A stretch of DNA of 64,000 nucleotides, taken from the NCBI GenBank assembly GCA_022827905.1, contig JAJEIQ010000050.1, forward strand, positions 1,385 through 65,384. Reading direction: 5' to 3'. Below, one piece after another: positions 27,644 through 64,000 of the stretch. The notes beneath the pieces were generated by a model that did no database searches, was not told the DNA's origin, and saw only the letters and a list, made by a program, of their open reading frames with translations. A program made the translations under genes and the position numbers. Within the stretch, counting starts at the first letter, position 1; every line of letters begins with the position of its first letter. Source of the DNA: Pseudomonadales bacterium. Lineage in GTDB: Bacteria > Pseudomonadota > Gammaproteobacteria > Pseudomonadales > Azotimanducaceae.

Positions 27644-27645
27644 GA

Positions 27646-33049: not shown

Positions 33050-33051
33050 CT

Positions 33052-33342
33052 CTACCAAGGCTTGTTGAGGCCGGTTCGGAGACGACGTTCCCGCCACTGC
33101 CGGTCGGTTCTTCCCCCGCCATCGGCGCTCCGGCCAGGCGAGAACGGCAGGCGCAATAGAAAACCCCAAGCGGACCCGCTGAACAGGAGTCGCGCCAGAG
33201 TAGCCCGGGCATCGCGGGGGGAAACGACGATCCGGGCCGCCAAGGTGCTTTCCGGAGCGCTGTCGATGATCAGTTGCTCACCGTCGCGGCCGATGGCGCC
33301 CACCTGAAACTCAATGTCCGCAAGTTCACTGGTGACCTTCAT
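33052..33342 (-). CDS. hypothetical small protein (doubtful)
   Basis: The ATG overlaps the upstream stop (ATGA 33339-33342), which suggests coupling. The first ~55 aa look protein-like, but the C-terminal half is Arg/Gly-rich like non-coding GC-rich DNA. It ends 2 nt from the convergent ThDP gene. Confidence 0.3.
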   Translation of the reverse strand: MKVTSELADIEFQVGAIGRDGEQLIIDSAPESTLAARIVVSPRDARATLARLLFSGSAWGFLLRLPFSPGRSADGGGRTDRQWRERRLRTGLNKPW

Positions 33343-34505: not shown

Positions 34506-34524
34506 GGGTGAGTCCTTGCAGGGT

Positions 34525-40214: not shown

Positions 40215-40226
40215 GGCCTGTTGACA

Positions 40227-45149: not shown

Positions 45150-45293
45150 GGTTCCCGCCTAGCGTCGCCTCGTTTGAGTCGCCTTGGGGCGAACTTGCTT
45201 TTACTATAGCGAAAACCAATGGCCCGGTTCAGTGGCGTGGCGGACCGGCCACAACACCTTGATTGCGACATAGGGGGCTGGCAAGGGAAGCCG

Positions 45294-47299: not shown

Positions 47300-47354
47300 A
47301 CCCTATGTTTGAACAGGTTGAGTTACGGTCTTTTCATGGGTACTACTGGTAGCC

Positions 47355-48698: not shown

Positions 48699-48718
48699 GG
48701 AATTTGCGGAGAATACAC

Positions 48719-49144
48719 ATGCTAGTCTTTTATCGAGAAATCACCGTCGAATGGGGTGAGTCCGACCCCTTTGGCCTTGTTTACTTCCCACGCATGCTCG
48801 CCTGGTTCAATGATGCGGAGCATGAGCTCTTCTCTCAGGCTGGCTATTCAGTCAAGAAAATGGTCGAAAAGGACCGCACAGCATTTGTCATGGGACGAGT
48901 TAGTTTCGAATTCGTGGGTCCTGCGGCATACGGCGATGAAATCATCACCCGCCTTGAGCTTGATGAAATCACCAACTCAACAATCACGTGGAAATGCACC
49001 GCCAATCGGAAGAAAGACGCGATTCAGGTCACCAAGGGCACGGCGACGCGCGTCTATGCTGAAATACAGGAGGATGGGACACTAAAGGCCATCAGAATTC
49101 CGGATCACATTCGCGAGATTCTAGGCGTCAAACCGAATCAGTGA
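48719..49144 (+). CDS. 4HBT-type acyl-CoA thioesterase (hotdog fold)
   Basis: WGESDPFGLVYFPRMLAWFNDAEHELF is typical of the 4-hydroxybenzoyl-CoA thioesterase family. ATG 48719 follows GCGGAGAA. Confidence 0.8.
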   Translation: MLVFYREITVEWGESDPFGLVYFPRMLAWFNDAEHELFSQAGYSVKKMVEKDRTAFVMGRVSFEFVGPAAYGDEIITRLELDEITNSTITWKCTANRKKDAIQVTKGTATRVYAEIQEDGTLKAIRIPDHIREILGVKPNQ

Positions 49145-49167
49145 GCCTGTTGCCCGAGACGCCTATG

Positions 49168-49554
49168 TCAGATGACGGCAGTCGCCTCAATTTCAATCTT
49201 GGCCTGACTCTCGACGAGCTGAACGACCTGGACCACGCTCATTGGCGGATAGTGCCGCCCGATTACATCGCGATAGGCTGCACCCATCTCCTTCTGTGAC
49301 CCCAAGTAGGCATCGCGGTCGGTGATGAACCATGTCAGGCGCACCAGATGCTCAGGGCCTGCACCGGCTTCCTTGAGCAGTGTCTTTATGTTCTCCAAGG
49401 TTTGACGAAACTGATCAATATACTCTTCGCTTTCAAATTCCTGCTGGGCGTTCCATCCGATCTGACCACCAAGAACAACCAGCTTGCCTTCGGCTACGAC
49501 GCCATTCGCATAGCCCTTTGCTGGTGCCCAATTGTCTGGCTGCAAAAATTCCAT
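49168..49554 (-). CDS. RidA/YjgF-family enamine-imine deaminase
   Basis: ATG 49554 follows AGGAAGAGG. 128 aa: PAKGYANGVV...LVRLTWFITD...IEIEATAV. Confidence 0.85.
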   Translation of the reverse strand: MEFLQPDNWAPAKGYANGVVAEGKLVVLGGQIGWNAQQEFESEEYIDQFRQTLENIKTLLKEAGAGPEHLVRLTWFITDRDAYLGSQKEMGAAYRDVIGRHYPPMSVVQVVQLVESQAKIEIEATAVI

Positions 49555-49567
49555 CCTGTGCCTCTTC

Positions 49568-51037
49568 CTATTTTTGTATGTGAATCGGTCGCCAGTCAGG
49601 CGCGACAAGGCGGCGTTTTCCGTCTGACGTTCGACTTGGATCGCCATCTGAAAAGTCACGATCCCACAACTGGCAGGTCACTTGTTTGTGCTTCTGATCC
49701 AATCCTTCACAGTAGTTGGTGTACTCGCAGAGGTTTACGGCATCACCCTGCCCGGTCCTGACTTTGATGAACCAATCAGGGTCAGCCAGCGCTTGACGCG
49801 CCAATGCAACGACGTCACCAACCTCTTCTGCCAAAACCCCTTTGGCTTGGTCAAAGTTGTGAATTCCGCCGGCAACGACGACGGGTGTGAGCAAGCTATC
49901 GTTCCGCAACGCCGAGCGTATGTGCTTGGCAAGCGGAACATTGCGACCGAACGGCCCTTGCTCATCAGAGATGTAGCCCGGCATGCATTCGTAGCCACTC
50001 ATGCCGGTGTACGGATACACCGCCTCGCCAACCTTGGGCTGCTTCGCGTCATCAAACTTGCCGCCCCGACTTAAGCTTAGGAAGTCGAGCCCCGCTCCAC
50101 ACAACGCAACGGCGTGCGCTGTGGCGTCTGAGAGATCAGAGCCGCCATCGATGCACTCATCGGCCAATATGCGCACGCCGACGACGAAATCCCGCCCAAC
50201 CGCGCTAAGCACTGCCTCCATGACCTCCAACGCCAGGCGCTGGCGACCCTTTAGAGCCCCGCCATATCCATCGTCACGGGTATTCGTTCGTGACAGGAAC
50301 GACGCCATGGTGTAGGCATGCGCGTAGTGCAGCTCCACGCCATCGAACCCCGCTTTCTTGGCTCGCACCGCCGCTGCTGCAAAGAGCTCGGGAAGCTGTT
50401 TCGGCAGATCGCGAATGTGTTCAAGCTCCATATCCGTAACGCGCTCGCGATAGCCATACCTCAGGGACTCCAACTCCCTGGTCGTCAGCACCTCCTCTAG
50501 CTCATCGCCACCAAGCAACATCAAGTGGGCGCGTACCTTGGCTTCATCGGCTGCCTCATCAAGCCCAACTGCTTGCGCATGCTCAGGGCGAACTTTCAAA
50601 AACCGTCCGAAATAGGCCTCAGCTGCTGGTCGACGCTTGATTGACAGGAAATCGATCAGTTGAATGAAAAGCTTGGAATAGCCCTTACTCTCCTCACGTA
50701 CCCGTTGTACGATTTGCTCCAAACCGGGAACGTAGCGATCATGGCCGATGCGCAGTAGCGGACCACTGGGTATGTCCCTAATGCCCGTAGCTTCCACGAC
50801 GATTGCCCCCGGTTGGCCACGCGCAAACCTTCCGTACCAATCGAGATTGTCGGCGGTTACAGCGCCGTCATCCTCCGCCCGCCAAGGCACCATGGCAGGC
50901 ACCCAAGTTCGCTCGTTGAGCCGCAAGGCTTGGAAGGAAAGCGGCTCGAATAGCTGGGCGGACGACGCCTCCTGTCGAGATGGCCAGCTGCCGCCTGGCG
51001 AGGCCTTGTACTTAACTCTCTGAGGAGGCTTCCACAT
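49568..51037 (-). CDS. NADH:flavin oxidoreductase (Old Yellow Enzyme family)
   Basis: OYE barrel motifs GFDGVELHYAHAYTMASFLSRTNTRDDGYGG. 489 aa with a roughly 80-aa insertion and a Cys-containing C-terminus. Confidence 0.85.
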   Translation of the reverse strand: MWKPPQRVKYKASPGGSWPSRQEASSAQLFEPLSFQALRLNERTWVPAMVPWRAEDDGAVTADNLDWYGRFARGQPGAIVVEATGIRDIPSGPLLRIGHDRYVPGLEQIVQRVREESKGYSKLFIQLIDFLSIKRRPAAEAYFGRFLKVRPEHAQAVGLDEAADEAKVRAHLMLLGGDELEEVLTTRELESLRYGYRERVTDMELEHIRDLPKQLPELFAAAAVRAKKAGFDGVELHYAHAYTMASFLSRTNTRDDGYGGALKGRQRLALEVMEAVLSAVGRDFVVGVRILADECIDGGSDLSDATAHAVALCGAGLDFLSLSRGGKFDDAKQPKVGEAVYPYTGMSGYECMPGYISDEQGPFGRNVPLAKHIRSALRNDSLLTPVVVAGGIHNFDQAKGVLAEEVGDVVALARQALADPDWFIKVRTGQGDAVNLCEYTNYCEGLDQKHKQVTCQLWDRDFSDGDPSRTSDGKRRLVAPDWRPIHIQK

Positions 51038-51039
51038 GC

Positions 51040-51852
51040 CTAGTTGCCCTCAAACACTGGCGATTGCTTGGCGACAAACGCTCGATAGGCGCGCTCAAAG
51101 TCAGAAGTTTGCATGCAAATCGCCTGCGCTTGTGCTTCAGACTCAATGGCTTGCTCGAGACTCATGCACCATTCCTGATTGAGCATCGTTTTGGTCATAC
51201 CATGCGCAAACGTGGGGCCGGCTATGAGCTGGCGCGCTTTCTCCCTCGCACATCCTGGCGCATCGTCAGAAAGCTCGTTAAAGAACCCCCAACGTTCGCC
51301 CTCCTCAGCCGTCATGACTCGACCACTGAACAAGAGTTCGCTCGCGCGACCTTGGCCAATCAATCTCGGCAATATCGCACAGGCTCCCATGTCACACCCG
51401 GCGAGCCCTACACGGGTGAACAGGAACGCAGTTTTGCTATTGCTGGCGCCATAGCGTAGGTCGCTGGCCATGGCGATGATCGCACCAGCGCCAGCGCAAA
51501 CACCCTCCACAGCGGCAATGACCACCTGCGGGCACGCTCGCATGGCCTTGACCAGATCACCGGTCATGCGGGTAAAGCGCATGAGTTCAACCATGTCCAT
51601 GGCAACCAGCGGTCCGATGATTTCATGCACGTCTCCGCCGGATGAGAAATTCCCGCCGCTCCCCTCGATTACAACCGCATGCACGTCATCCGCATAACAC
51701 AGTTCCCGAAACAGATCCCTAAGCTCCGCATAGGAGTCAAAGGTGAGTGGGTTTTTTCGTTCCGGACGATTCAAAGTCACCGTCGCGACCCCGTCTTCCA
51801 AGGACCAAAGAAAGTGAGACGGCTGATAGTCGGCCATGGATTTGGTTTGCAT
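51040..51852 (-). CDS. enoyl-CoA hydratase/isomerase (crotonase)
   Basis: [16 protein letters not shown] and [22 protein letters not shown]. Confidence 0.9.
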
Positions 51853-51861
51853 CGCTATCCC

Positions 51862-52599
51862 CTACGTTGTTTCACCGCCAGAGATGGAGATGGCTTGGCC
51901 GGTCACAGATCCGGCGAGTTCGCTCACCAACCACACAGCCGTTGCGCCAATTTCCTCTGGCTCGATTAATCTCTGTTGCGGGTTGTTGGAGTACAGCGCC
52001 TTTCGCGCGTCGTTCTCCGATCGACCGGTTTTTTCCATGATGTTCTTCACGGAGATCTCCAACATCTCCGTGTTCGCAAAGCCCGGACAGACTGCGTTAA
52101 ACGTGACGGGGGATCGCGCAAATTCCGCTGCCAACGCACGCGTAAGCCCGAGCAGTGCATGCTTGGACGCACAGTAGGAGGCGACGTACCCGTAGCCTTT
52201 CTGCGCCGCAGTGCTGGCGATATTGATGACCCGTCCAAACTCGCGTTCCAACATGCCAGGCAGCACGGCCTGCGTGCAATGGAAGGCCCCGTCGACATTC
52301 ACCGCAAACGTATCCCGCCAAGTCACGCTATCCAGCTTCGCAAAGGGCATACTCGGTGCGATGCCTGCATTGTTCACAAGAACGTCCACGGCATCAAATT
52401 CCCGAAAAGCGCCAACCACCGCGCTGTTGTCGGTTATGTCCAAGACTTGACAGTCAGCATTCGACAGCGATTCGCAAACTTTCTCCAAAGCACTCTGCGT
52501 TCGACCAACGAGGGTCGTCCGAATGCCGTCCGCATCGAATGCCCGGGCAATCCCTGCCCCAATGCCAGTGCCTCCACCAGTTATGACGGCATGTTTCAA
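51862..52599 (-). CDS. SDR-family dehydrogenase
   Basis: TTG 52599 overlaps the upstream TGA (TTGA). Cofactor motif [11 protein letters not shown] and catalytic motif [10 protein letters not shown]. The longer track ORF from 52677 would overlap the upstream gene by 80 nt. Confidence 0.8.
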
Positions 52600-54905
52600 G
52601 CACTTGCTCCCATGGCGCGCGCTCGCTCCGCGTTGCGCATCAATTGCTCCTTCCCAGGCAGGTACTGCACTGGCCACGCTTGCTCGACACCCGCTTCAGC
52701 CGCAGCCCTGAGCGTCCAAAATGGATCCGTAAGGTGGGGTCGCCCGAGGCAGCACAGGTCCGCACGACCTGACACAAGAATCGAATTCACGTGATCCGTC
52801 TCATAAATGTTGCCAACCGCCATCGTCGGAATGCCCGCGCTGTTGCGAATGAGGTCCGCAAACGGCGTCTGGAACATTCGACCATAGACGGGTTCCGCAT
52901 CAGGTGATGTTTGCCCGGCTGAGACGTCTATGATGTCTGCACCGGCGTCATGGAACGCCCGGGCGATCTCGACGGATTCTTGGCCATCCACGCCTTGAGG
53001 ATGCCAATCCGTCGAAGAGATTCGAACACTCATCGGCTTTTCCCCAGGCCAAACTCGCCGTACCGCACGGAAGACTTCCAATGGGAAGCGAAGCCTGTTC
53101 GCCAGCGAGCCGCCATATTCATCGGTTCTATGGTTGAGCAGTGGGGTAATGAACGCGGACAACAGGTAGCCGTGCGCGCAGTGCAGTTCGAGCCAATCGA
53201 AACCGGCTTCATGGGCCCTCCTCGCCGCCCGCACGAACTGCACCCTCACTGCATTCATGTCAACTCGCGTCATCGCTTTCGGCACCTGGTTTTCTGGCCC
53301 GTACGGCACATCCGACGCGCTCATGATCGGCCAATTTCCTTCATCGAGTGGTGCGTCGCTTCCTTCCCAGCCCACCTTAGTGGAACCTTTGGGCCCGGAA
53401 TGGCCCAATTGCATCGCAAATTTGCACGGCGTTTGACGATGCACAAAATCGACGATTCGTTTCCATGCCGCCTGCTGCCGGCCGTTCCATAGGCCAGCAC
53501 ACCCAAGTGAGATGCGTCCCTCACGTGAGACGTCCGTCATCTCAGTGAACAGCAAACCAGCCCCGCCCTTCGCCAACGCGCCGTAGTGCACCAAATGAAA
53601 ATCCTCTGGAATTCCCTCTTCAGCGCTGTACATGGACATCGGCGAGACAACGATTCGATTGCGCAAAACAAGGTCACGAACACGAAAAGGCACAAACATC
53701 GGTCGCGTCGGCCTTGGTGGGGGCGCGTTCGAGGTTGATGCAAACCATGACTCCATCTCACCCAGCCATTCACCATCCCGCAGCCTGAGGTTTTCGTGGC
53801 TGACACGCTGCGATCGTGTCAACAGGCTATAGGTGAACTGCCTCGGAGCCAGATGCATGTAGTGTTCTACATTTTCAAACCATTCCGTGCTGTTTCGAGC
53901 CGCATTCGTGATCTTGATCACTTCCAGCGCCCGCTCCTCCTGATAGGAAGCCAGCGCATCTTCAAGCGATGCGGCATCACTATGGATGTGATCAGCGAGG
54001 CAGGTGGCATCTTCCAACGCCAGTTTGGTGCCAGAGCCAATGGAAAAGTGTGCCGTGTGGGCTGCATCGCCCAACAACACAACGTTCTCGTTGTACCACC
54101 GTTCACAGGTCACTCGCGGGAAGTTGATCCATATCGCCGAGCCGCGAAGATGAGCCGCATTGTCCATCAGGGGCGCGCCGTCCAGATGCTCCTTGAAAAT
54201 CTCCTCGCAGAGCCTTACGCCCTTCTCCTTCCCCATGCGCTCAAACCCGGCTCGAGCCCAGGTTTCAGGGCCGCACTCAACGATGAACGTTGAGGTGTCT
54301 TCATTGAATTGGTAAGCATGGGCCCAAAACCAACCCCATTCCGTTTTTTCGAAGATGAAGTTGAAGGCATCAAAGCGCTTCTTAACCCCCAGCCAAACAA
54401 ATCGGTTCTTTCGCGCATCCACATTTGGCCTAAACACATCCTTGTACAGCGATCTAACACGGCTGTTTAGTCCATCGCAGGCAACGACTAAATCGTACTC
54501 TGCGCGATAGGCTTCCATATGTTGGATTTCAGTCTCCGTCTCGTACTCGATCTCAACTCCGAGTTCCACACAACGTGCTGACAAAATCTCCAACAGTCGC
54601 AGCCGACCAATACCGCAAAACCCGTGGCCGCCCGACCGATGCGTTTCTCCGCCAAAGTGGACTTCCACATCATCCCAGTGCGCAAAGCTGCTCGCGACAA
54701 GCGCGGCTGTCTGAGGATCATTGCTTCTCATGTGTTCCATCGTTTCATCTGATAGAACCACACCCCAGCCAAAAGTGGAGTCCGCCCGATTTCGTTCCAA
54801 TACCCGCACTTGATGGTTTGGATTCCTCAGTTTCATGGAAAGCGCAAAGTAAAGACCCGCAGGGCCTCCGCCTAAGCAAATGACATTCATCGATTGACCA
54901 TTCAT
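52596..54905 (-). CDS. bifunctional FAD monooxygenase / OYE reductase (2-aminobenzoyl-CoA monooxygenase-reductase, salicylyl-CoA 5-hydroxylase type)
   Basis: N-terminal half: [14 protein letters not shown] and [25 protein letters not shown]-terminal half: [36 protein letters not shown] 54905 overlaps the upstream stop (ATGA). 769 aa. Confidence 0.85.
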
Positions 54906-55690
54906 TGCCGAACCCCGGGAATGAGCGCAAGAACCCGCAATGGACTGCCGGATCCGTTCTGAATCTTCAAGGGAGCGCAAAACAACAGGCTCCCCGTGGG
55001 TGGCAGGTGTTCAAGGTTCGCCAAGCACTGCAATCCATATTTGCCAGAACCGTGCATGAAGTAGTGGCAAGGGTACGGAGGGTTTAGATGCTGGGCTTGG
55101 CCTGCATCCGTACCGATCGACTCAGTCCCAAATCCGAGAACATTGCGTTCCACCAGATACTGCACTGCCCCGGCATCCGGCCCTGGCGTGTGCTGCCCCT
55201 CTTCGTCGTAGTTTTGATACTCAATCGGATCTGTTCGTTTTGACCAATCGGTGCGCATGATCACCCATGCCCCTTCTGGAATCTCACCGTGTTCCTGTTC
55301 CCACTGAACAATATGGTCTTTAGTCAAGAGGAAGTCGGCGTTCTGCCCTGAGTGCTTGCTGTAATCGAGCACAACCGCCGGGGCAATCATATGCTCGGGC
55401 GGAATGGTATCCACTGTGTTGTTCGGCAAGTTGCGGCCGGACACCCAGTGAATGGGTGCATCAAAGTGGGTGCCGGTGTGTTCGCCACATGAGAAGTTGT
55501 TCCAATACCAACTGGGACCTCGATCGTCGTACTTGGAAACCTCCTCAATCCGAAACGGCTGAACTTGACCAAACTCCGGCGGGAGGGTCAGTTGGGGAAA
55601 ATCGGGTGAGAGCGTCTGCGTTAGATCAACAACGCGAACCCCGCCGCTGGTGATGGCCCGGCTCAATCCAGTGAGCAATTCAGCACCCAT
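54902..55690 (-). CDS. cyclase-family metal hydrolase (kynurenine formamidase / isatin hydrolase family)
   Basis: Motif [13 protein letters not shown] (HxGTHxDxPxH). GGAG lies 6 nt upstream of the ATG. Confidence 0.85.
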
Positions 55691-55700
55691 GTTCAGCTCC

Positions 55701-56432
55701 TTAGGTAAAGCTCATGTTGCCCACGGAACTGCCGCCACAGACAAAGAGCGTTTGGCCGGTCACAAACCCGGCGTCATCGGAAAGAAAGAAATCCACTGCC
55801 CGCGCAACATCGCTTGGCCGCCCAATCCGACCCACCGGAATTCGCTCTGCCACACGCGCTTCCAACTCGCTGCCCTTTTCGACGACGTCGTGAAACATTT
55901 CCGTGTCCTCAATCGCGCCTGGCGCCACAACATTCACCGTCACGCCATGCTCGGCGAGTTCAAGCGCCCAGGTACGCGCCATGCCGATCATGCCCGCTTT
56001 GGTCGCCGAGTAAACGGTTCGTTTCTCGAGCCCCACAACCGCACGAGTGCTCATAAGAACAACCCGCCCATGACGTTCGCAACGCATCCTCGGCAAAGCC
56101 GCTTGCAGCATCGATATGGCGCAGCCCAAGTGCAGCTGACTGAGGGCGGTCAGATCTTCGTTCACAACCTCTTCGACTGGTTTTTCGATTATGGCCCCAG
56201 CGTTGTGAATAATGCGCGAACTCGGCCACTGCTCGGCCGCTTGCTGAAAGGCGCTTCGCGTAGCCACCGGATCAGACAGATCCGCCTTGATCGATACCAA
56301 CGAGTCATGACTTCCGGCGACACTTCGGCGGGCAATGCTAACGACCTGATAGCCTTGCCGCACGAGATGGTCCGCAAGGTGGGCTCCAATGCCAGAGCTC
56401 CCACCGGTCACCCAAACGTTGGGTTTACTCAC
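55701..56432 (-). CDS. SDR-family dehydrogenase
   Basis: The GTG start overlaps the upstream gene by 8 nt. Cofactor motif VWVTGGSSGIG and catalytic motif YSATKAGMIG. Confidence 0.9.
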   Translation of the reverse strand: MSKPNVWVTGGSSGIGAHLADHLVRQGYQVVSIARRSVAGSHDSLVSIKADLSDPVATRSAFQQAAEQWPSSRIIHNAGAIIEKPVEEVVNEDLTALSQLHLGCAISMLQAALPRMRCERHGRVVLMSTRAVVGLEKRTVYSATKAGMIGMARTWALELAEHGVTVNVVAPGAIEDTEMFHDVVEKGSELEARVAERIPVGRIGRPSDVARAVDFFLSDDAGFVTGQTLFVCGGSSVGNMSFT

Positions 56433-57672
56433 TGATCAGCTCCTTCTCCAAGACCTTTGGCTCCTCTCGAAATCGACTATAGAACTCCTTCGCAACATCT
56501 CCCACGTAGATGTCTTCAACGCCGCTCCTCAGCCCCTCGACGACATCGCGCGCTAGGCGCTCCGGTGCGACCTTAGGTGGCGGCACCATCTGGCTCCAAG
56601 GCTCATCAATGGGGCCGGAAAACGCATTCAGCACCCGAATGGCCGCGGGGTGAAACTCCGCTCGTTGACACTGGCTCAGGCTCAAGGCCGCAGCCTGGGA
56701 TGCCGAGTAGGTCCCTTCGGGTGGATAGTTGCTCAAGGCAAAGACGGACAGGAGATTCACCCAAGCCACCGCACTGTTTTGGCCATCCGCGCCACGTGAC
56801 TTCATCGCGGGACCAAACTCCTGAATGAGCCGGAGCAAGCCAAAGTAGTTAACTTCCATCTCAAGCTTGGCAACATCTGTCCCATAACGAGACGCAATAC
56901 CCTGGGTGCGATGCACGGTGGCGGTGTTAATCAAGATATCCACACGACCGCCTAACGCACTGCCTTGTTCCTGTACGCTTCGCGAATCAGTCAGATCAAG
57001 AGGCACGAATTCAACTTCCCGAATCTCCCCCAAATCGGCAAACCCATCCGGTCGTTTCCAAGGTTCGGTTTCCCCCACCCAGATGAGACTCGCGCCCGCA
57101 TCCGCGATAGCCCGCACCATGGCTTGACCTACCTCGCTCTTGCCATCGGTGACCAGCACCTTTCTGAATTTCGGGTCGCAAGTCATCTCGCGAAGCTGTT
57201 GGTCATCAGCCATATTGGGCACCTCATCAATTGGGGTAGCGATGAGTACGCCGCGCCCCGCTCTATCTAGCCGTGCACTTACCGACACCTGCTCCGATGG
57301 AGAGCCGATGTCGCCATGCAGGTGTGCGACCACCGATGGGCCGCAGTCGAGACGAATCAGGCCCAATCGCCATGGCATCCGCTCCCGGAAATACAGATCA
57401 TGGCTGTGGTGCAGGTTGGTTTCGGCCAACAATTGACCGCCCCCATCAAGCTCCACCCACTCAAGATCTTGTGATACGCAGGCGCCGCACATTTCTCGCG
57501 GCGGGTACTGCACCATTTGGCACTCGCTGCATTGTTGCAGTTCCAGCACCCCCCGGGCCGCCGCTGCGGTCAGCCTCAGGCCAATCCGGCTGCGCGCCCA
57601 TGGCGGCAGGATTGGCGCTCGCGTGCGCAGTATTGGGTTTTTGCGCTTCGGACGCTGCAGCGGTTCCGTCAC
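56425..57672 (-). CDS. DUF35 (Zn-ribbon + OB fold) fused to a degenerate SDR-like domain
   Basis: GTG 57672 overlaps the thiolase stop (GTGA). Zn ribbon: CSECQMVQYPPREMCGAC. The OB region follows, then an SDR-like domain with TDGKSEVG in place of TGxxxGxG and YSASQ in place of YxxxK. Confidence 0.8.
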   Translation of the reverse strand: MTEPLQRPKRKNPILRTRAPILPPWARSRIGLRLTAAAARGVLELQQCSECQMVQYPPREMCGACVSQDLEWVELDGGGQLLAETNLHHSHDLYFRERMPWRLGLIRLDCGPSVVAHLHGDIGSPSEQVSVSARLDRAGRGVLIATPIDEVPNMADDQQLREMTCDPKFRKVLVTDGKSEVGQAMVRAIADAGASLIWVGETEPWKRPDGFADLGEIREVEFVPLDLTDSRSVQEQGSALGGRVDILINTATVHRTQGIASRYGTDVAKLEMEVNYFGLLRLIQEFGPAMKSRGADGQNSAVAWVNLLSVFALSNYPPEGTYSASQAAALSLSQCQRAEFHPAAIRVLNAFSGPIDEPWSQMVPPPKVAPERLARDVVEGLRSGVEDIYVGDVAKEFYSRFREEPKVLEKELISE

Positions 57673-58850
57673 GCCACTGCCCCAATGCCTAGAAGAGCCG
57701 CGGCCGTACACACCCCGCGATCGTAGTTAATCATGCCAAACCCGCTCACCAACCCGATCTTGGCATCGGGCACTTGATGACCCGCTGGCTGGCCCGTCAA
57801 TTGCCTGACCGCTTCGACCATGCCAAGGTAACCACCAGCGGCGCCGGCCTGACCAACGGACAACTGGCCGCCCGATGGGTTGATCGGAAAGGTTCCATCC
57901 CAGGCAAACTCATTGGCTTGAATGAATGCGGGCGCCTCGCCCTTCTCACAGAACCCAAGATCTTCAAATTGAAGCGCATTGATAATGGGATAGTCGTCGT
58001 ACGTACACATGAAGTCGACGTCATTGGGCGAGCAGTCCGCACGTTCGTACAGCGCATCCTTGTCCATGGCCCAGCCGCCGCGCATTTGAATCGGATCTTC
58101 AGAAAACGCATTGTGACGCTCGATCGTGGAGAGGATTCGAGCGTGGGGCAGGCCCAACTGCGATGCACTCTCTCGCGACATGACCAAGAACCCTTCCGCG
58201 CCTGCGCAGGGCATCACGCAATCGAACAAATGCAACGGCTCGGCGATGACGCGAGCCGACATGTATTCCTCCAAGGTGAGCGGCCTTTTGAACAGCGCAT
58301 TCGGATTGGCCAAGGCATTGGTTCGTTGCGCTACGCAAAGCTTGCCGAACTGCTCACGGGTCGCGCCGTATTCCCGCATGTAGTAATCCGTTAGGAACGC
58401 AAAACTCGCGTTGGGTCCGCCGGAACCGTAGGGATAGACCGCATCCTGCGCGTATTGGCTGAAACTGCCCAGGAGATTGCGGAAGGTATCCACATGATTG
58501 GTGTCCGCACCAATGCAAGCAACGATGGAAGCATCCCCACACTGCACCGCCCGAGCCGCGCGACGCAAGCCAACCACCCCACAGGCGCCACCCATCGGGA
58601 TGTGATCGAGCCATCTGGGCGACATGCCGAGGTGCTGGGTCAGCCCCACTGCGGTATCGGGAACCAACTGGAAGCTCGATATGCAGAGCCCATCGATGTC
58701 GTGCTTTTCCAATCCCGAGTCGTCGATCAACGTTCTGAGAGCCTTCGCCGCAAACCAATGCGTGCTGCGATTGGTGTACCGGACATAGTCAACCGTCACC
58801 GGCGCAACGACGGCAATCTCCTCATAGGGCAACTGAAGACGGCTAGCCAC
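57669..58850 (-). CDS. thiolase-like protein (SCP-x / DUF35-partner type)
   Basis: The GTG at 58850 overlaps the ligase 3' end by 8 nt. Thiolase-like sequence with CISSF, CAGAEG and a GG-rich C-terminus. 393 aa. Confidence 0.85.
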   Translation of the reverse strand: MASRLQLPYEEIAVVAPVTVDYVRYTNRSTHWFAAKALRTLIDDSGLEKHDIDGLCISSFQLVPDTAVGLTQHLGMSPRWLDHIPMGGACGVVGLRRAARAVQCGDASIVACIGADTNHVDTFRNLLGSFSQYAQDAVYPYGSGGPNASFAFLTDYYMREYGATREQFGKLCVAQRTNALANPNALFKRPLTLEEYMSARVIAEPLHLFDCVMPCAGAEGFLVMSRESASQLGLPHARILSTIERHNAFSEDPIQMRGGWAMDKDALYERADCSPNDVDFMCTYDDYPIINALQFEDLGFCEKGEAPAFIQANEFAWDGTFPINPSGGQLSVGQAGAAGGYLGMVEAVRQLTGQPAGHQVPDAKIGLVSGFGMINYDRGVCTAAALLGIGAVA

Positions 58851-60456
58851 GGCGTTTCTTCTTCCCGCGCAGGTCCACGCATTGCCGCCCCCCCACAAGC
58901 TCGCAGGCCAAGGTCTTCAGCTCACTGCGTTGAACCTTTTCCGTTGCCGTAAGCGGTAGTTTGCCCACAAACGCGATGTACCCTGGGGCCTTGTAATATG
59001 CGAGCCGACCAAGACAGTGATCGGTGATGGCTTGGGCAAAGGCATCGCTCGCATCAGTTGCCACAATGCAAGCAAACACCTCCTCGCCCCGAATTTCGTC
59101 AGCAATGGATGTGATCCCCACAGCCTGGACGCCGCCGACCTCCATGATGACTTCCTCGACTTCCACGGCCGAGATGTTCTCCCCGCTTCGGCGAATCACG
59201 TTTTTTTTGCGATCCACGAAGTGCATGAGCCCATCATCGTCAACATAAACGAGATCGCCCGTGTGGAAGTAACCGCCCTCCCACGCCGCTTGAGTCGCCT
59301 GTTCGTCTTTCAGGTATCCAGAAAAAAAACCGTATCGAGGCGAAGGCGAGGCGCGCCGCACGAGTAACTCACCCGGACATCCTTGCGCCACGTCTCGGCC
59401 AGCATCATCAACCAAGCGAAAGTCCAGGTGATCGGGCGGGCGGCCAAAACAGGCCGTGCCCACCTTGCGAGGCTCCTCACTGGCGATGATCGCCACCGTG
59501 CATCCCGTCTCGGTCATCGCCCAGGCCTCGATTAAGCGCACGTTGAACCTGGACTCAAAAGCGGTGTGGAGCTCGCCCGACAGACCAGCGCCAAAGCCAA
59601 ATCGCAGGTTGTGCCGTTGATCTCTCGGGCTTTTGTCGAGACTCATCAGCATGGCGGGCATGACCCCTAGGTAGTGCATGATCGTCGCGTCGCACTCGGC
59701 AACCGAATCCCACCAGCTGGCCGGGTGAAACCGATCAATTGGCACAATGCAGCTCCCCGTTAGAATCATCGCCATCGTTGAGGCCGCCATTGCATTCATG
59801 TGGTACATCGGCAGCGGCGAAATCAACCGGTCCTCCCCAGGCTGCAACTGGCAATATCCGCCAACGTTTTGGTACCACTCGCCCGTTGCGAGGAAGTACT
59901 CGTTGGACAGCATGCACCCCTTGGGTTTTCCGGTGGTGCCCGAGGTGTAAAGGAGCGCGCACTCAGTCTCCATTCTGCCGACGGAATTAAGCGCCACCCG
60001 ATTGTCGGTTTTGCCTTTGTCCCCGTTGGTGTCGAAATCCGTCACGGACACCACAGGACAGGTCGCAATGCTCGCCAAAGCTGCTTGCGCCGTTGAATCT
60101 AAAACAACCACCAACGACGCTTCACTATGGCTTAGCACGTACTCCAGCTCGGCGGATTGCCATTGCGGGTTGAGCGGAACCACGCTCACGCCAAGCGCAT
60201 TCAATGCCAGCCAGTGGTAGAAAAACTCAGGCCTGTTGTCGAGGCCCACCGCAACGCGCGTGACGACTCCGGGCTTGAGCTCCAACCGTTCTTCATAGTG
60301 CTGAACTGCCCTCGAGATCGTCGAAAGCGCGTCCGCATAACTCACTGTGGACGCCGCAACGCCATACCGACTTGCGGTGTCGCTAACCATCTGCATAAAC
60401 GGCCGAGACCCGTACTTTTCCGATGTATTAACAAAGGCTTGCGCGACACTACTCAT
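58843..60456 (-). CDS. AMP-dependent acyl/aryl-CoA ligase
   Basis: AMP-binding motif LLYTSGTTGKPKG. Later motifs YFHTGDLVYVDDDG and RRSGENI. Confidence 0.9.
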   Translation of the reverse strand: MSSVAQAFVNTSEKYGSRPFMQMVSDTASRYGVAASTVSYADALSTISRAVQHYEERLELKPGVVTRVAVGLDNRPEFFYHWLALNALGVSVVPLNPQWQSAELEYVLSHSEASLVVVLDSTAQAALASIATCPVVSVTDFDTNGDKGKTDNRVALNSVGRMETECALLYTSGTTGKPKGCMLSNEYFLATGEWYQNVGGYCQLQPGEDRLISPLPMYHMNAMAASTMAMILTGSCIVPIDRFHPASWWDSVAECDATIMHYLGVMPAMLMSLDKSPRDQRHNLRFGFGAGLSGELHTAFESRFNVRLIEAWAMTETGCTVAIIASEEPRKVGTACFGRPPDHLDFRLVDDAGRDVAQGCPGELLVRRASPSPRYGFFSGYLKDEQATQAAWEGGYFHTGDLVYVDDDGLMHFVDRKKNVIRRSGENISAVEVEEVIMEVGGVQAVGITSIADEIRGEEVFACIVATDASDAFAQAITDHCLGRLAYYKAPGYIAFVGKLPLTATEKVQRSELKTLACELVGGRQCVDLRGKKKRRG

Positions 60457-60459
60457 ACT

Positions 60460-60930
60460 TCAAATCAACATCTGTATTGAAGGAAGCGCCGCATCGCGAT
60501 TGAGCAGCTCAATACGTTTACGCCTTATTTTGTAAGTTTCTTCAACGGCCACGATCTGATGATGAACACTGCCGCCTAGAACAATTTGTTGATCAAGCTG
60601 TGTTTCGAGATAAACAAATGGCGTTCTCGTCTCAAACGTCCCTCCCACACTGGACACCAGTTCAGGCTTCTGCAGCACATGTTGGCAGTAACTGGGCGGC
60701 TGCTGAGAAAAAACGTGAGGCGAGTTAAGACGCTCGATCCTAATGCGAAGCACCAATCGATCCTCAAAAAACAGGCTGTTGTGGATTTCGTCCTCAGTCT
60801 GCCCTCTTTTCAAAGGCGCCCAATACAGAACATCGTCAGTCAGTAACGCCAGCCAATCTTCGAATGCCTTCTCGTCGAGCAGCCGCGCCTCTTCATAAAT
60901 CAACGACTCAATGGCGGCGCAGTCATCCAT
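60460..60930 (-). CDS. aromatic-ring-hydroxylating dioxygenase beta subunit
   Basis: ATG 60930 overlaps the alpha-subunit stop by 8 nt. NTF2-like sequence: IESLIYEEARLLDEKAFEDWLALLTDDVLYW. 156 aa. Confidence 0.85.
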   Translation of the reverse strand: MDDCAAIESLIYEEARLLDEKAFEDWLALLTDDVLYWAPLKRGQTEDEIHNSLFFEDRLVLRIRIERLNSPHVFSQQPPSYCQHVLQKPELVSSVGGTFETRTPFVYLETQLDQQIVLGGSVHHQIVAVEETYKIRRKRIELLNRDAALPSIQMLI

Positions 60931-62257
60931 GAGCGGCTTCCATCGAAGACAGAATCTGATCTCGCCATGCCCGGTATTGACCGCGCATGGACACTTCGTT
61001 GGTGCCGTTGTAGTCCCCTGCGATGCCATTGGATTCGTTTTGGGAGTGCCCTCGATGCAGGCTGATCCAATCCCTGCCCGAACTAGCCAATCCTTCCTGA
61101 ATCGCGCGATAGCATTGCAGGTCATCATGCCCCACGACGCTCGTGGGTGCGTTGATGATGCGGCTATAGGTCAATGTTCGCTTCAAATGTTCATCCGATG
61201 CGCCAACCAACCGAAACGTCCAGCTTTCGATCAGCGTTTTGTCATGCGCTATCGGACGTGCAACTCGAATGGCCTGTATGGCCCCTTTGATCGTCAAGCT
61301 CGGGTAGTAGACGGTGTTGTGGCGGTTGGTCCCCAGCACTTCCCTCGCCTTCTCCTCACCGAGGGAATCACAAAGCGATTCAAAGTACCCGGGCACAGCC
61401 GAGTAGTTGGAGTGAATCGAAAAATGCACGCCTGAATAGCTGTGACCGTGATCAAAAGTGCGGATGCCCATGTCATCGAAGAACTCATAGCTGCTTACGA
61501 ACGGCTCAAACTGCTCAACCACCATCGGCTTTGGTTCATCCTTGCCATGTTCGGCATACCACAGAGACTTCGCAGTCCCCGCCGAGGATTGGTGCGCGAC
61601 CATGGGATGCATCGTGTCATTCAGGTTTTCCACGAACATCTTCCAGTTGCAGTTGTGCATGTAGCGCAACACCCCCCCTGCAATCTCCAAACGTCCCTCA
61701 GGGGCACGGCCCACCATGTTGTCGATCGAGGTCAAGGACTCACCAAAGTAGTCTTCGAAGCTGAGCCCATGATCGGATAGGCGGACGAAGACAAAGCCGC
61801 GGTAGTTCGCCAAGTTATCCACCCGTGTTAGACCCAATGCGCCACGTGTCTCGTCTTTGAGTTCGATGCGAGTGCCCTCATATCCCTTGGGCAGCGGAAA
61901 AGCCCGGAACGAACCATCGTATCCATAAGTCCAACCGTGGTACGGACAGCGAATCGCCGCGCCGAGCTTGCCCGAAGGCGCAGTGACGAGCTTGGTCCCT
62001 TTGTGGGCACAACGGTTCTTCATCGCACACACAGACCCGTCACGATCCCGAACCATGATCAGGGGCTCTCGTGCAATATCGACGCTCACGTAGTCGCCAG
62101 GTTCAGGCACTTGGGAATCATGGCCCAAATAGACCCAACTCGATGGCCACAAGTGCTCCATTTCCAACTCAAAGACCGTTGGGCTGATGTATAGGTCCCG
62201 GTGAACCTCATCCTCTCTAACCAGGCTACGTACCTCATCAGCGGTTAGGATCGTCAC
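60923..62257 (-). CDS. Rieske aromatic-ring-hydroxylating dioxygenase alpha subunit
   Basis: Rieske motif CAHKGTKL ... CPYHGWTY. The GTG start overlaps the iorB-like stop by 1 nt. Confidence 0.9.
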   Translation of the reverse strand: MTILTADEVRSLVREDEVHRDLYISPTVFELEMEHLWPSSWVYLGHDSQVPEPGDYVSVDIAREPLIMVRDRDGSVCAMKNRCAHKGTKLVTAPSGKLGAAIRCPYHGWTYGYDGSFRAFPLPKGYEGTRIELKDETRGALGLTRVDNLANYRGFVFVRLSDHGLSFEDYFGESLTSIDNMVGRAPEGRLEIAGGVLRYMHNCNWKMFVENLNDTMHPMVAHQSSAGTAKSLWYAEHGKDEPKPMVVEQFEPFVSSYEFFDDMGIRTFDHGHSYSGVHFSIHSNYSAVPGYFESLCDSLGEEKAREVLGTNRHNTVYYPSLTIKGAIQAIRVARPIAHDKTLIESWTFRLVGASDEHLKRTLTYSRIINAPTSVVGHDDLQCYRAIQEGLASSGRDWISLHRGHSQNESNGIAGDYNGTNEVSMRGQYRAWRDQILSSMEAAHG

Positions 62258-63729
62258 TATGCCGCCCCCGTCGCTAGTTCCCTTTCGCCCTTGATGATCG
62301 CCGCATCAAGTACATCACCCGTTTCGTCGGCTAATGCCGCCTCTCGCACTTTTCTAATCACAGCATCCGCGCCGGAATTTTGCTTGTGATCCAGTGCGAA
62401 TGACATGATGCGCTTGAGGTTTGCAGACCCTCGTTCATGGGTGTCGCCGTAGCCGGCGACCAGGTCCTGACTCCGTGCAACCTCAAGGGCCAGGTCATAG
62501 TCGGTCTTCGCCAGCGCCGCGACACAATCCAGCCATTCACGCATGGCAGCCATTTCTTCGTGATGGCGCAGGAGTCGACGACGCAACGCGCGCATGCGAG
62601 CCACCATGCGAAGCGCGAGATATCCCCAGAGGCTCGACGACTGGATGGTGAGCCCGCGAGTGAACAACCCCAACAGGGCACGGGCGGCATCGGACCTTCT
62701 GGCCCAGCACCCTAAACCGACAGGCATGGAACCCGCGATTTCCTCAATTCTCGGCTTCATGTACTCCGTCACCTGCACAATCTCGGCGTTTTCGCCAGAC
62801 CCCAACAGCCGCATCAACCGTTCCGGCTTCGTCTTGAGGTCCGCAACCCGGATGGTGTCTTCGTAAGTCATCCATAGCGCCAAGCCCTTGGCAGCTTCCG
62901 CCGTCAACGCGAAAGGCGCGCAGTCCATCTCAAGCAGATCGTCAACCAGCGCTCGATACTCACTGACGTAGGCTTGGTCCTGGTAGTCAATCAATCTCGG
63001 GACCGCATGCGAGACCACTTCACGAACGTCGTTGGGAAGCTGCAAGACCCAGTCATCGGCTACCGACGCCGGTTGGCCTTGCTGAGCATCTTGTTCGCAA
63101 GCCGCTTCCGGAAGCCCCCCTGCCCGCGCGGCCTCAAGCGCATCGTTGAACGCCGCTAGGTTGGCTGCGACACTCAGCCCGCTTCGCTCAATCGCATTGG
63201 CATAGAGTGCGACTGCAAAGGGAAGCACACCCGATCCGGCAATCGCTCCGAGAATCGCCGCACTGATGACGCTGGCATTTCTAGCCGCGATGGCTTCCAT
63301 GTCAAACGCCACCATGCGCTGCGCGTTGCTTTCCAAAACCCTCAGCAATTCGTCTGAGTCGGCACGCCCATCGCCCAAGTGAGATTTCTCGTCGATCGTG
63401 TACGCCCGATGCGTGCTCGTAATCAGTGTTGTCACATTCGGCTGCACCAGCTGGCGTTGCACCATGCGTGCGGCTTCCACCAACTCCGAAGCCACCACGA
63501 GGTCACCGGTTCCTCTCGCAGGCATCAAGGCCATCACGGGGCGGTCATCGGATTTCGGATAAAACTCCAAATAGTAAATCGTGGCACCCGTTCTCTGTGC
63601 AACCCCGGGCACTGAGGTGGCTTGCACGACATAGCCAGATTGTTCGGCAACGTCTATCATCCAGTTTTGCACCACCCCCCCGCCTTGACCTCCGAGCGCT
63701 GCAATCGTCAGTGTGATTGGGCGCTCCAT
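62257..63729 (-). CDS. indolepyruvate/arylpyruvate ferredoxin oxidoreductase beta subunit family
   Basis: ATG 63729 (MERPITLTIAALGGQGGGVV) overlaps the upstream TGA by 1 nt. 490 aa. The track start 63894 is rejected. Confidence 0.8.
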   Translation of the reverse strand: MERPITLTIAALGGQGGGVVQNWMIDVAEQSGYVVQATSVPGVAQRTGATIYYLEFYPKSDDRPVMALMPARGTGDLVVASELVEAARMVQRQLVQPNVTTLITSTHRAYTIDEKSHLGDGRADSDELLRVLESNAQRMVAFDMEAIAARNASVISAAILGAIAGSGVLPFAVALYANAIERSGLSVAANLAAFNDALEAARAGGLPEAACEQDAQQGQPASVADDWVLQLPNDVREVVSHAVPRLIDYQDQAYVSEYRALVDDLLEMDCAPFALTAEAAKGLALWMTYEDTIRVADLKTKPERLMRLLGSGENAEIVQVTEYMKPRIEEIAGSMPVGLGCWARRSDAARALLGLFTRGLTIQSSSLWGYLALRMVARMRALRRRLLRHHEEMAAMREWLDCVAALAKTDYDLALEVARSQDLVAGYGDTHERGSANLKRIMSFALDHKQNSGADAVIRKVREAALADETGDVLDAAIIKGERELATGAA

Positions 63730-64000
63730 CAGGCTTGCACCCTCCGTGCCAAGAGCCGATCCATCATCCAGCGATTCACGTTTGCGACAAAGCGCTCCCA
63801 CTTGGTTGGATTCTGAATGCGCGTGACCTTGTAAAAGGATGGGCAGAGCACTGCAGCCTGCGCCACTGAACCGCAAACCCCGCACCCCACGCAACTGGCA
63901 TCAACATGGGCAACAGGTTTGGCGCGCAGCGGATCTTGCGATGGCTTTATTGTCAATGATGGGCAGCCCGACAGCCGAATGCATGAATGGTCGCCAGTGC
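63729..64000 (-). CDS. indolepyruvate ferredoxin oxidoreductase alpha subunit family, C-terminal part (5' end outside window)
   Basis: The frame stays open to nt 64000 (...TGDHSCIRLSGCPSLTIKP...). 4Fe-4S-like motif CVGCGVCG...CPS. Confidence 0.7.
   Translation of the reverse strand, partial: TGDHSCIRLSGCPSLTIKPSQDPLRAKPVAHVDASCVGCGVCGSVAQAAVLCPSFYKVTRIQNPTKWERFVANVNRWMMDRLLARRVQA

Follow-up and report, generated by a model that had tools for sequence, protein, structure and literature searches.

An iad-type auxin-degradation locus joined to a probable anthraniloyl-CoA module in a predicted operon of a metagenomic gammaproteobacterium

How can an operon that encodes a dearomatising enzyme for an aryl-coenzyme A (CoA) thioester dispense with the ligase that would make this thioester? 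The question is raised by a stretch of 64,000 nucleotides (the window) from a Pseudomonadales bacterium of the Azotimanducaceae (assembly GCA_022827905.1, contig JAJEIQ010000050.1, positions 1,385 to 65,384), in which 14 co-directional genes run on the minus strand from nt 49168 to the window edge. Judged by gene content, genes 1–9 are an iad-type indole-3-acetic acid (IAA) degradation locus (iadA, B, D, E, F, G, H, J and I), and genes 10–14 are an anthraniloyl-CoA monooxygenase/reductase module that is widespread in stand-alone form and here has no ligase and carries an OYE-like flavoprotein in place of an acyl-CoA dehydrogenase (ACAD). We consider it very probable that the operon is an auxin-degradation locus joined to a CoA-dependent 2-aminobenzoyl-CoA pathway; that the predicted 2-oxoacid oxidoreductase IadAB is the link between the two has about an even chance.

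The list of open reading frames, our own translations and independent gene calls, the latter taken from the public contig that contains the window (ENA ERZ23491403, KELL22-1 scaffold_282, 85.9 kb), agree on starts and stops. Eight overlaps and five gaps of 2–13 nt account for the 13 junctions (Table 1), exactly as in a preliminary description of the locus, whose domain identities were likewise borne out for every operon gene by Pfam and NCBIfam. A consensus scan against shuffled sequence found three promoter-like sites inside the block (7.0 expected) and five terminator-like sites (15.8 expected), low counts that are compatible with a single transcript but are no proof of it.

The identity of the upper genes was established against two sets of loci, carrying the prefix L: 80 genomic loci anchored on IadD and searched by tblastn with 15 proteins and 10-kb flanks, and 80 metagenome loci anchored on an IadB alignment and then annotated. 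IadA, B, E, F, G, H, J and I are collinear with the Variovorax loci L073, L076 and L078 at 43–69% identity (tblastn); IadF, G, H, I and J are all present and contiguous, at 50–69% identity to the same three loci, in the order F-G-H-J-I here and F-G-H-I-J in Variovorax. Across the iad loci, identities to the corresponding proteins are 57–69% for IadA, 40–50% for IadB, 48–62% for IadF, 47–64% for IadJ and 61–72% for IadI, and IadE is 43–60% identical to the product of the gene that adjoins iadD in the 80 IadD loci. The published order is iadR (MarR)-iadA (iorA-like)-iadB (iorB-like)-iadC (reductase)-iadD-iadE-iadF (ligase)-iadG (thiolase)-iadH (SDR)-iadI (cyclase)-iadJ (SDR)-iadK, with iadA and iadB serving as marker genes (PMC9613470). 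Genes 1–9 are therefore already known from the iad loci of Variovorax, Achromobacter and Bradyrhizobium, and are not a new Ipf-like system.

The Rieske oxygenase bears directly on the substrate. Three PDB entries match IadD at E values of 6e-183 to 8e-182, with the next family, 3-phenylpropionate dioxygenase, following at 3e-43; the matched chains are near-identical to IadD of the Variovorax loci, and hence are structures of Variovorax IadD. Global alignment gives 62% identity to IadD of Variovorax sp. MHTC-1, and all 14 cofactor and pocket residues compared are kept (C85, H87, C106, H109, N210, L211, H216, H221, F251, H311, K322, R329, Y362 and D377), among them the four Rieske ligands, the three iron ligands and the IAA-pocket set of Ma et al. 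(PMC10374108: Asn210, Leu211, His216, His221, Phe251, His311, Lys322, Arg329 and Tyr362).

The preliminary description had read this enzyme as an Ipf-like acyl-CoA dioxygenase, in a route where IorAB makes indoleacetyl-CoA from indole-3-pyruvate, or the ligase activates IAA, before the Rieske oxygenase acts on the thioester and the thiolase and DUF35 proteins remove the side chain. The gene set does share the architecture of ipfABDEF, IadAB belongs to the IOR family and a thioesterase gene adjoins the operon. However, purified Variovorax IadD/E together with IadC converts free IAA (PMC10374108), accepts 4-Cl-IAA less efficiently and rejects IBA and IPA; IadD/E binds IAA with a Kd of ~17 uM, whereas IadF to IadJ do not bind it, and Variovorax genetics places IadF after IadDE and IadJ, so that CoA ligation comes later than the oxidation steps (PMC12633357). 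With every IAA-pocket residue kept here, with IadA and IadB far under the IOR equivalog cut-offs, and with IadAB remaining beside isatin-hydrolase-like and fusion genes at loci where Rieske oxygenase and ligase are absent (see below), we regard a CoA-first order as improbable. The alpha subunit groups with free-acid oxygenases, the very grouping that the preliminary description had named beforehand as speaking against its proposal. Its outline of the route (an IAA-type substrate, oxygenation, CoA-dependent loss of a C2 unit, isatin hydrolysis, dearomatisation of anthraniloyl-CoA, beta-oxidation-like steps and RidA) survives, as does its recognition of an isatin-hydrolase-family gene; the CoA-first order does not.

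Support for an indole-derived substrate also comes from IadI, which matches isatin hydrolase A over its full length (5nna, 5nnb and 5nmp, E 1e-108) and isatin hydrolase B at 3e-82 (4j0n), with an intact HxGTHxDxPxH metal motif that aligns with the same motif in the solved enzymes. Between oxygenase and hydrolase stands the removal of the side chain, for which IadG would not be expected to act as a thiolase. Its PDB matches comprise SCP2-type thiolases and the steroid side-chain aldolase Ltp2 (6ok1_A, 5e-42), and in all 15 orthologues aligned the thiolase histidines are replaced, HDxF by YDDY and GHP by GQA; at the first of these motifs Ltp2 reads YDHF and true thiolases HDAF. The nucleophile position (motif MGGACGVV) is Ser in Variovorax and most others and holds Cys only within a Pseudomonadales-like group, namely the present protein and those of L004, L005 and L028, so the canonical set of a degradative thiolase, a Cys nucleophile with two His/Cys motifs, is not present in IadG. 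Because both thiolase histidines are absent, the nucleophilic Cys is not conserved and Ltp2/ChsH2(DUF35) is among the PDB matches, IadG is probably a retro-aldolase instead of a thiolase. Its partner IadH matches ChsH2(DUF35) in its N-terminal part (6ok1_B, 3e-7), and its SDR-like half has a degenerate nucleotide motif. Near GTYSASQ, the YxxxK motif of this protein has Gln where all 14 other aligned orthologues have Lys, and the catalytic Tyr is Phe in Variovorax and several others; the domain may lack dehydrogenase activity. As the main model, true thiolysis to anthraniloyl-CoA by way of 2-formamidobenzoylacetate was rejected, since IadG lacks the thiolase catalytic residues and isotope data from Variovorax favour dioxindole-3-acetate. 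The best solved match of IadG is PDB 9myr_A (3.7e-46), which is titled only ‘Nonspecific lipid-transfer protein’ and has the YDxY and GQ(A/S)G substitutions in common with IadG; the entry may thus be a structure from the same group of non-thiolases.

In Variovorax, the order of steps was set by genetics, metabolomics and isotope tracing. There IadCDE acts as a mono-oxygenase, probably by way of a 2,3-epoxide and its hydration, IadJ forms dioxindole-3-acetate (PMC12633357) on which IadF acts, IadF, G and H strip the C2 side chain via a CoA ester, and IadI follows later, with isatinate (C8H7NO3), C7H7NO and anthranilate found downstream; these orthologue data come from PMC10374108, PMC9613470 and PMC12633357. 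By orthology, IadDE in the present operon would oxidise free IAA at C2/C3 with electrons from an outside donor, iadC being absent, and IadJ would dehydrogenate the hydrated product to dioxindole-3-acetate, of which IadF would make the CoA thioester. From dioxindole-3-acetyl-CoA, a tertiary beta-hydroxyacyl-CoA, IadG and the DUF35 part of IadH would remove the side chain as acetyl-CoA by retro-aldol cleavage without thiolysis, as in Ltp2-ChsH2(DUF35), leaving isatin or dioxindole, and IadI would open isatin to isatinate (2-aminophenylglyoxylate).

The lower genes begin with the FAD monooxygenase::OYE fusion, which scores 1274 bits on NF006101 (cut-off 1078) over its full length, at residues 31–791 of the long reading frame, and is 62% identical to the fusion enzyme of stand-alone modules. 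In Roseiterribacter such a module comprises MarR, fusion, SDR (short-chain dehydrogenase/reductase), crotonase, ACAD, AMP-forming ligase, 4HBT thioesterase and RidA, and in Porticoccaceae LTM1 the same set minus ligase and thioesterase. The SDR that follows the fusion here is 49–52% identical to its counterpart after the fusion gene in L086 and L087, the crotonase 69–74% identical to that of the same two loci, and RidA 52–54% identical to RidA of L085, L086 and L087. The divergent OYE-like protein, of which only residues ~200–330 align to solved OYEs, occupies the slot that ACAD has in the stand-alone modules; an orthologue stands at the same position in L084, and relatives of 60–62% identity lie beside the fusion gene in metagenome loci.

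Family membership and the precedents of Azoarcus evansii and Arthrobacter predict how such a module would work, just as orthology to Variovorax underlies the steps of IadDE, IadJ, IadF, IadG/H and IadI, and gene neighbourhoods that of IadAB. The fusion enzyme would convert 2-aminobenzoyl-CoA to 2-amino-5-oxocyclohex-1-ene-1-carboxyl-CoA. This product is an enamine, which makes an enamine/imine hydrolase of the RidA family a sensible deaminating step; RidA would hydrolyse it and set ammonia free, the SDR, crotonase and OYE-like (or ACAD) enzymes would open the ring and carry out beta-oxidation-like steps, and the neighbouring thioesterase would release CoA from intermediates that accumulate.

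The fusion family is very large and is named ‘anthraniloyl-CoA monooxygenase’ by JGI and ‘salicylyl-CoA 5-hydroxylase/oxidoreductase’ by NCBI. The second name would suit an operon that degrades salicylate via salicylyl-CoA 5-hydroxylase, or some other aryl-alkanoate, and not auxin, as might the origin of the sequence, an environmental metagenome with no stated plant link, and neighbours such as sulfatases, TonB receptors and TRAP transporters. Yet the IAA pocket of IadD is fully kept and the Variovorax enzyme rejects IBA and IPA, the isatin hydrolase orthologue makes sense only for an indole-derived substrate, RidA suits an amino-substituted ring, and the same iad core is present in the marine Roseibium. 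The regulator points the same way. A 186-aa MarR protein is encoded divergently and directly upstream of iadA (L001 4045-4605, beyond nt 64000), and the PDB entries that it matches best are auxin-binding MarRs from Conway et al. (7KUA, 7L19, 7L1I and 7KFO). Of these, P. putida IacR, an iac-type regulator, is much the nearer relative (7KUA, 5e-32) and Variovorax IadR the more distant one (7KFO, 9e-9), despite the iad-type catabolic genes. We therefore hold a non-auxin substrate to be most unlikely, and the divergent MarR probably controls the operon.

What, then, joins the auxin locus to the lower module? The only AMP-forming ligase in the operon is IadF, which is 25% identical to the ligase of the stand-alone module, and no homologue of the module-type aryl-CoA ligase occurs in L001, L005, L084 or any other sampled locus where iad genes adjoin the fusion gene. 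IadA and IadB belong to the thiamine pyrophosphate (TPP)/FeS 2-oxoacid:ferredoxin oxidoreductases, enzymes that produce acyl-CoA from 2-oxoacids, and among these to the IOR family: the translation of IadA (frame 2) ends with a CxxCxxC...CP 4Fe-4S motif, the full gene has a TPP_enzyme_C domain, and IadB scores 547 bits on NF006179, ‘indolepyruvate oxidoreductase subunit beta family’ (cut-off 348). Neither subunit reaches the IOR equivalog thresholds (IadA, 301 bits on TIGR03336 IOR_alpha against 650.9; IadB, 41 bits on IOR_beta against 205.8), and a PDB sequence search with full-length IadA gave no match at E 1e-5. With these scores, and with isatin-hydrolase-like and fusion genes as neighbours, the conversion of indolepyruvate to indoleacetyl-CoA previously assigned to the pair is not established. 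Isatinate, the product of isatin hydrolase, is an aryl-glyoxylate, so its oxidative decarboxylation would give 2-aminobenzoyl-CoA, which would in turn explain why the operon has no aryl-CoA ligase. We rate the proposal that IadAB catalyses this reaction at close to an even chance.

Gene neighbourhoods beyond the iad loci support an order of hydrolase, IadAB and fusion enzyme. Ordinary iad loci with IadD, mostly with iadC, make up 14 of the 80 IadB-anchored loci. Among 17 IadAB loci of at least 15 kb without IadD, an isatin-hydrolase-like gene (51–62% identical to IadI) is present in 12, the fusion gene in ten and one or the other in 14, against a module-type ligase in two and IadF in none. The cyclase-family gene lies directly upstream of IadA in 15 loci of the IadB-anchored set and the fusion gene directly downstream of IadB in 12, and locus L157 reads cyclase-IadA-IadB-fusion-SDR-crotonase-ACAD-thioesterase-RidA without any ligase. 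Strong accumulation of isatinate (C8H7NO3) and C7H7NO in Variovorax was confined to over-expression of iadC-K2 in the absence of iadAB, which fits a role of IadAB as the link. A further candidate line of evidence, that the presence of IadAB tracks the fusion gene among IadD loci, was not discriminating, IadAB being found in about half of the complete iad loci with or without the fusion.

The same Variovorax experiments also lend support to the alternative. If IadAB is not the link, isatinate would yield free anthranilate, to be activated by an unlinked anthranilate-CoA ligase or a promiscuous IadF, and IadAB would serve elsewhere, for example in entry from indole-3-pyruvate or in supplying reducing power. 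The nine Variovorax genes iadC-K2, without iadAB, suffice to make anthranilate, so IadAB is not needed for the removal of IAA and free anthranilate can form; loci L085/L004 and L044 combine iad genes with the fusion and show no IadAB within 10 kb; a module-type ligase accompanies IadAB in L121, L143, L145 and L166; and some IadAB loci sit with aminotransferases and a permease. On the other side, the sampled iad+fusion loci and this operon have no module-type aryl-CoA ligase, IadF is only 25% identical to that ligase, ligase-free cyclase-IadAB-fusion operons exist, and IadAB is translationally coupled to the operon through 1-nt overlaps. We take this alternative seriously, with a probability of roughly one in three, and continue with IadAB as the proposed link.

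Several other points weigh against the pathway that we propose, alongside the sufficiency of iadC-K2 and the loci without IadAB. In this organism the pathway is a prediction from sequence. The sequence cannot separate a 2-aminobenzoyl-CoA enzyme from a salicylyl-CoA 5-hydroxylase, as one NCBIfam model spans both names; it is the context (isatin hydrolase, RidA) alone that favours an amino compound as the substrate of the fusion enzyme. Purified IadDE requires a reductase in vitro and none is encoded in the window, and no reaction is assigned to the OYE-like protein or to the degenerate SDR half of IadH. Finally, IadAB keeps other company in L100, and these different neighbours imply that the family may also use 2-oxoacids other than isatinate. 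Downstream of cyclase-IadA-IadB in that locus (L100 11412-16502) lie a CDGSH iron-sulfur/cupin fusion, an amino-acid permease and two class-V aminotransferase/kynureninase-like genes, possibly a link to tryptophan or kynurenine.

The arrangement recurs. From MarR to the OYE-like gene, the order is identical on a 6.1 Mb contig (L084, IadD 79% identical) and in a Pseudomonadales metagenome-assembled genome (MAG; L005), and iad genes adjoin the fusion gene in about nine of the 80 sampled IadD loci, in several arrangements (L004/L085, L025, L028, L033, L044, L062 and L069 being the others). All of these others are from Gammaproteobacteria-type MAGs (Pseudomonadales, Steroidobacteraceae and others), and none of the sampled Variovorax, Paraburkholderia or Massilia loci has a fusion gene beside its iad genes. 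As far as these loci tell, the joining of iad genes and lower module is conserved in a gammaproteobacterial lineage and is not accidental. The open-access literature that we searched has iad loci end in anthranilate, with no mention of a lower-module extension or of a role for IadAB. The preliminary description had called the combination of genes in one operon unfamiliar, and this is right for the joining and wrong for the parts, genes 1–9 being iad and genes 10–14 a common stand-alone module; what is new here is that an iad locus and an anthraniloyl-CoA module, both known, stand in one operon.

Three observations on betaproteobacterial-type and related loci stand beside this. At 18.4-20.5 kb of iad locus L036, genes for a module-type SDR, thioesterase and RidA follow the iad genes with no fusion gene in range, and Massilia iad loci L066 and L072 have a module-type CoA ligase (53% identical) at the locus edge, so that the link between iad genes and the anthraniloyl-CoA module may be wider than 10-kb flanks reveal. 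Loci from Paraburkholderia and relatives (L009, L010, L012-L016, L018, L019, L021, L023, L027 and L030) run IadC-IadD-IadE-IadF-IadJ without orthologues of IadG, IadH and IadI and have only a 36–39% identical thiolase on the opposite strand; their pathway seems to be a shortened version of iad or a different one that resembles it.

Table 1. Operon genes in order of transcription, followed by two adjacent genes; positions are those of the window
Gene or product	Position	Strand	Length and defining matches	Junction with next operon gene
iadA (3' end), alpha subunit of TPP-dependent 2-oxoacid:ferredoxin oxidoreductase, IOR family	63729..64000	-	full gene 706 aa, runs past window edge	1 nt overlap, 63729
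iadB, beta subunit	62257..63729	-	490 aa; POR + DUF6537	1 nt overlap, 62257
iadD, Rieske oxygenase alpha subunit	60923..62257	-	444 aa; PDB 9o71_A (E 6e-183), 7yls_B (8e-182) (Variovorax IadD)	8 nt overlap, 60923-60930
iadE, Rieske oxygenase beta subunit	60460..60930	-	156 aa; Pfam Ring_hydroxyl_B	3 nt gap
iadF, AMP-forming acyl-CoA ligase	58843..60456	-	537 aa; Pfam AMP-binding domains	8 nt overlap, 58843-58850
iadG, thiolase-fold protein, SCP2/Ltp2 type	57669..58850	-	393 aa; PDB matches incl. 6ok1_A	4 nt overlap, 57669-57672
iadH, DUF35 (zinc ribbon + OB fold) fused to degenerate SDR-like domain	56425..57672	-	415 aa; Pfam zf-ChsH2, OB_ChsH2_C, adh_short	8 nt overlap, 56425-56432
iadJ, classical SDR dehydrogenase	55701..56432	-	243 aa; Pfam adh_short_C2	10 nt gap
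iadI, isatin hydrolase, cyclase family	54902..55690	-	262 aa; solved isatin hydrolase matches	4 nt overlap, 54902-54905
FAD monooxygenase::OYE fusion, 2-aminobenzoyl-CoA monooxygenase/reductase / salicylyl-CoA 5-hydroxylase family	52596..54905	-	769 aa; Pfam FAD_binding_3 + Oxidored_FMN	4 nt overlap, 52596-52599
SDR of lower module	51862..52599	-	245 aa; Pfam adh_short	9 nt gap
Crotonase-family enzyme	51040..51852	-	270 aa; NF006107 480 bits (cut-off 330)	2 nt gap
Divergent OYE/FadH-N-terminal-like flavoprotein	49568..51037	-	489 aa; Pfam Oxidored_FMN in three pieces	13 nt gap
RidA/YjgF-family protein	49168..49554	-	128 aa, start Met at 49554; Pfam Ribonuc_L-PSP	
4HBT_2 acyl-CoA thioesterase	48719..49144	+	141 aa, convergent with operon; gene call + Pfam 4HBT_2	
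Aromatic-acid/H+ symporter-family MFS transporter	47355..48698	+	447 aa; PcaK/MhpT-like; TIGR00895 333 bits (below cut-off of 418)	

The preliminary description had seen no regulator, ferredoxin or reductase in the window, which holds, and had suggested looking beyond nt 64000, where the rest of IadA and the divergent MarR gene indeed lie, with genes for a TPR/sulfotransferase protein and a TonB-dependent receptor after them; that part of the contig showed no reductase or ferredoxin to serve the Rieske oxygenase either. A tblastn search with Variovorax IadC found no IadC-type reductase in the 64-kb window, the extended contig or the gammaproteobacterial-type loci; among the loci searched it was confined to those of Burkholderiales, and on a Roseibium plasmid iadC is annotated as a PDR/VanB oxidoreductase. 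As iadC has been reported to be dispensable for IAA degradation in vivo, its absence here is no argument against function, and a host reductase would be needed. In a weaker extension of our proposal, two electrons from IadAB might pass to the Rieske oxygenase where iadC is absent, a late step thereby paying for the first.

Convergent with the operon is a four-gene unit on the plus strand (45294-49144) that encodes an SDR (290 aa), a DUF819 membrane protein, the MFS transporter and the 4HBT_2 thioesterase. Orthologues of the thioesterase (74% and 70% identical) adjoin the iad+fusion loci L085/L004 and L005, and thioesterases also occur in L087, L157 and the Roseibium cluster; the enzyme is probably a safety valve for CoA recycling. 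The transporter is a candidate uptake system by association only. Farther away, 28293-36102 holds genes for a copper primary-amine oxidase (+), a HisC-like aminotransferase (-), a PRK08266-type TPP decarboxylase-like enzyme (+), a 96-aa open reading frame, a CN-hydrolase (-) and a CrtO-like FAD oxidoreductase (-), followed by a TonB-dependent receptor (36125-38644). This cluster may be an amine or amino-acid catabolic set; its reading as an auxin-biosynthesis set was not supported by the HisC-like, PRK08266 and CrtO-like assignments. A gene pair for a RES-domain toxin and an Xre-type antitoxin lies at 27068-27999 (-), and tRNA and Rfam scans of the whole window gave no matches.

A second metagenome (NGUY21-1 scaffold_1091) holds a near-identical copy of the entire neighbourhood. 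Megablast of the 14.8-kb block against plasmids returned four short matches only, with 0–4% coverage, and the block is not a known plasmid. Its G+C content (0.54–0.59 at 48000-64000) is below that of the adjoining 40000-48000 (0.62–0.66) and its GC skew is strongly negative, both of which are compatible with acquisition by transfer.

The significance of the locus lies in what it predicts for iad catabolism at large. In a set of Gammaproteobacteria the iad genes appear hard-wired to a CoA-dependent dearomatising pathway minus its ligase, and this operon, together with the ligase-free cyclase-IadAB-fusion operons of soil metagenomes, yields a concrete prediction: IadAB would be an isatinate:acceptor oxidoreductase that makes 2-aminobenzoyl-CoA directly, a reading that we offer tentatively, at slightly less than even probability. 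In that case the catabolism of auxin and isatin by iad-type genes would, in many bacteria, deliver a CoA thioester and not free anthranilate. If true, it would provide a function for iadA and iadB, the marker genes left without a role in a published pathway that ends at anthranilate, and would define a widespread ligase-free route from isatin hydrolase through IadAB to the monooxygenase/reductase. The operon also suggests that one transferable unit can hold all the genes needed to mineralise IAA and isatin completely and to free their nitrogen, and it would widen the range of iad-type auxin catabolism to uncultured Gammaproteobacteria from outside the rhizosphere. Root development is shaped by bacteria that degrade auxin, and inoculants are being engineered to carry the iad locus.

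Compared with known systems, the operon stands closest to the iad loci of Variovorax, with which it shares the orthologues iadA, B, D, E, F, G, H, I and J in nearly the same order, a divergent MarR, the IAA pocket and the same expected chemistry, from IAA through dioxindole-3-acetate and its CoA ester to isatin and isatinate. It differs in lacking the iadC reductase and the iadK-type ABC binding proteins, in the swapped iadJ and iadI, in running on into five lower-pathway genes where the published end product is free anthranilate, and in its host, an uncultured metagenomic gammaproteobacterium rather than a root-associated betaproteobacterium. With the stand-alone abm-type module it has the orthologous fusion (62%), SDR, crotonase and RidA genes in common, and a 4HBT thioesterase nearby; in contrast to that module it has no AMP-forming aryl-CoA ligase and no MarR of the module's own, a 489-aa OYE-like protein stands in place of ACAD, and the module is translationally coupled to isatin hydrolase. 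In Roseibium (Labrenzia) aggregatum, a marine species whose name appears in the PDB entries for isatin hydrolase, a plasmid carries a complete MarR, IadC-D-E-F-G-H-I-J and thioesterase set, with a TRAP transporter and a cytochrome P450/oxidoreductase fusion (NZ_CP045628.1, L089, 12465-27687), and thus extends the iad core to marine bacteria; unlike the present operon it has iadC, and neither iadAB nor the monooxygenase/reductase module (IadD identity 54%).

Resemblances to three further systems are of architecture or chemistry. The ipfABDEF genes of Sphingomonas sp. Ibu-2 encode a Rieske oxygenase (alpha and beta), an acyl-CoA ligase, an SCP2-type thiolase-fold protein and a DUF35 protein, and there the CoA ester is formed first and is the substrate of the oxygenase. 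The five-part architecture and the coupling of ring oxygenation to CoA-dependent loss of an acyl side chain are shared, a likeness drawn from architecture and not from Ipf sequences, whereas the iad oxygenase acts on the free acid and the ligase follows; a plasmid search singled out no ipf plasmid. Ltp2-ChsH2(DUF35) (PDB 6OK1) offers the same pairing of thiolase fold and DUF35, with Tyr for the first thiolase His (YDHF in Ltp2, YDDY in IadG) and a tertiary beta-hydroxyacyl-CoA substrate cleaved to a ketone and a short acyl-CoA. The similarity is modest (E 5e-42), the second catalytic Tyr (Tyr344) does not align with a Tyr in IadG, and IadH joins its DUF35 part to an SDR-like domain; the aldolase role of IadG/H is putative. 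For the proposed isatinate step, precedents are IorAB and the CoA-benzoylating phenylglyoxylate:acceptor oxidoreductase of Azoarcus evansii, which turn aryl 2-oxoacids into aryl(acetyl)-CoA; the phenylglyoxylate enzyme has five subunits, whereas IadAB is a two-subunit member of the IOR family, below the IOR equivalog thresholds, whose predicted substrate would place it at the junction of auxin breakdown and CoA-dependent dearomatisation.

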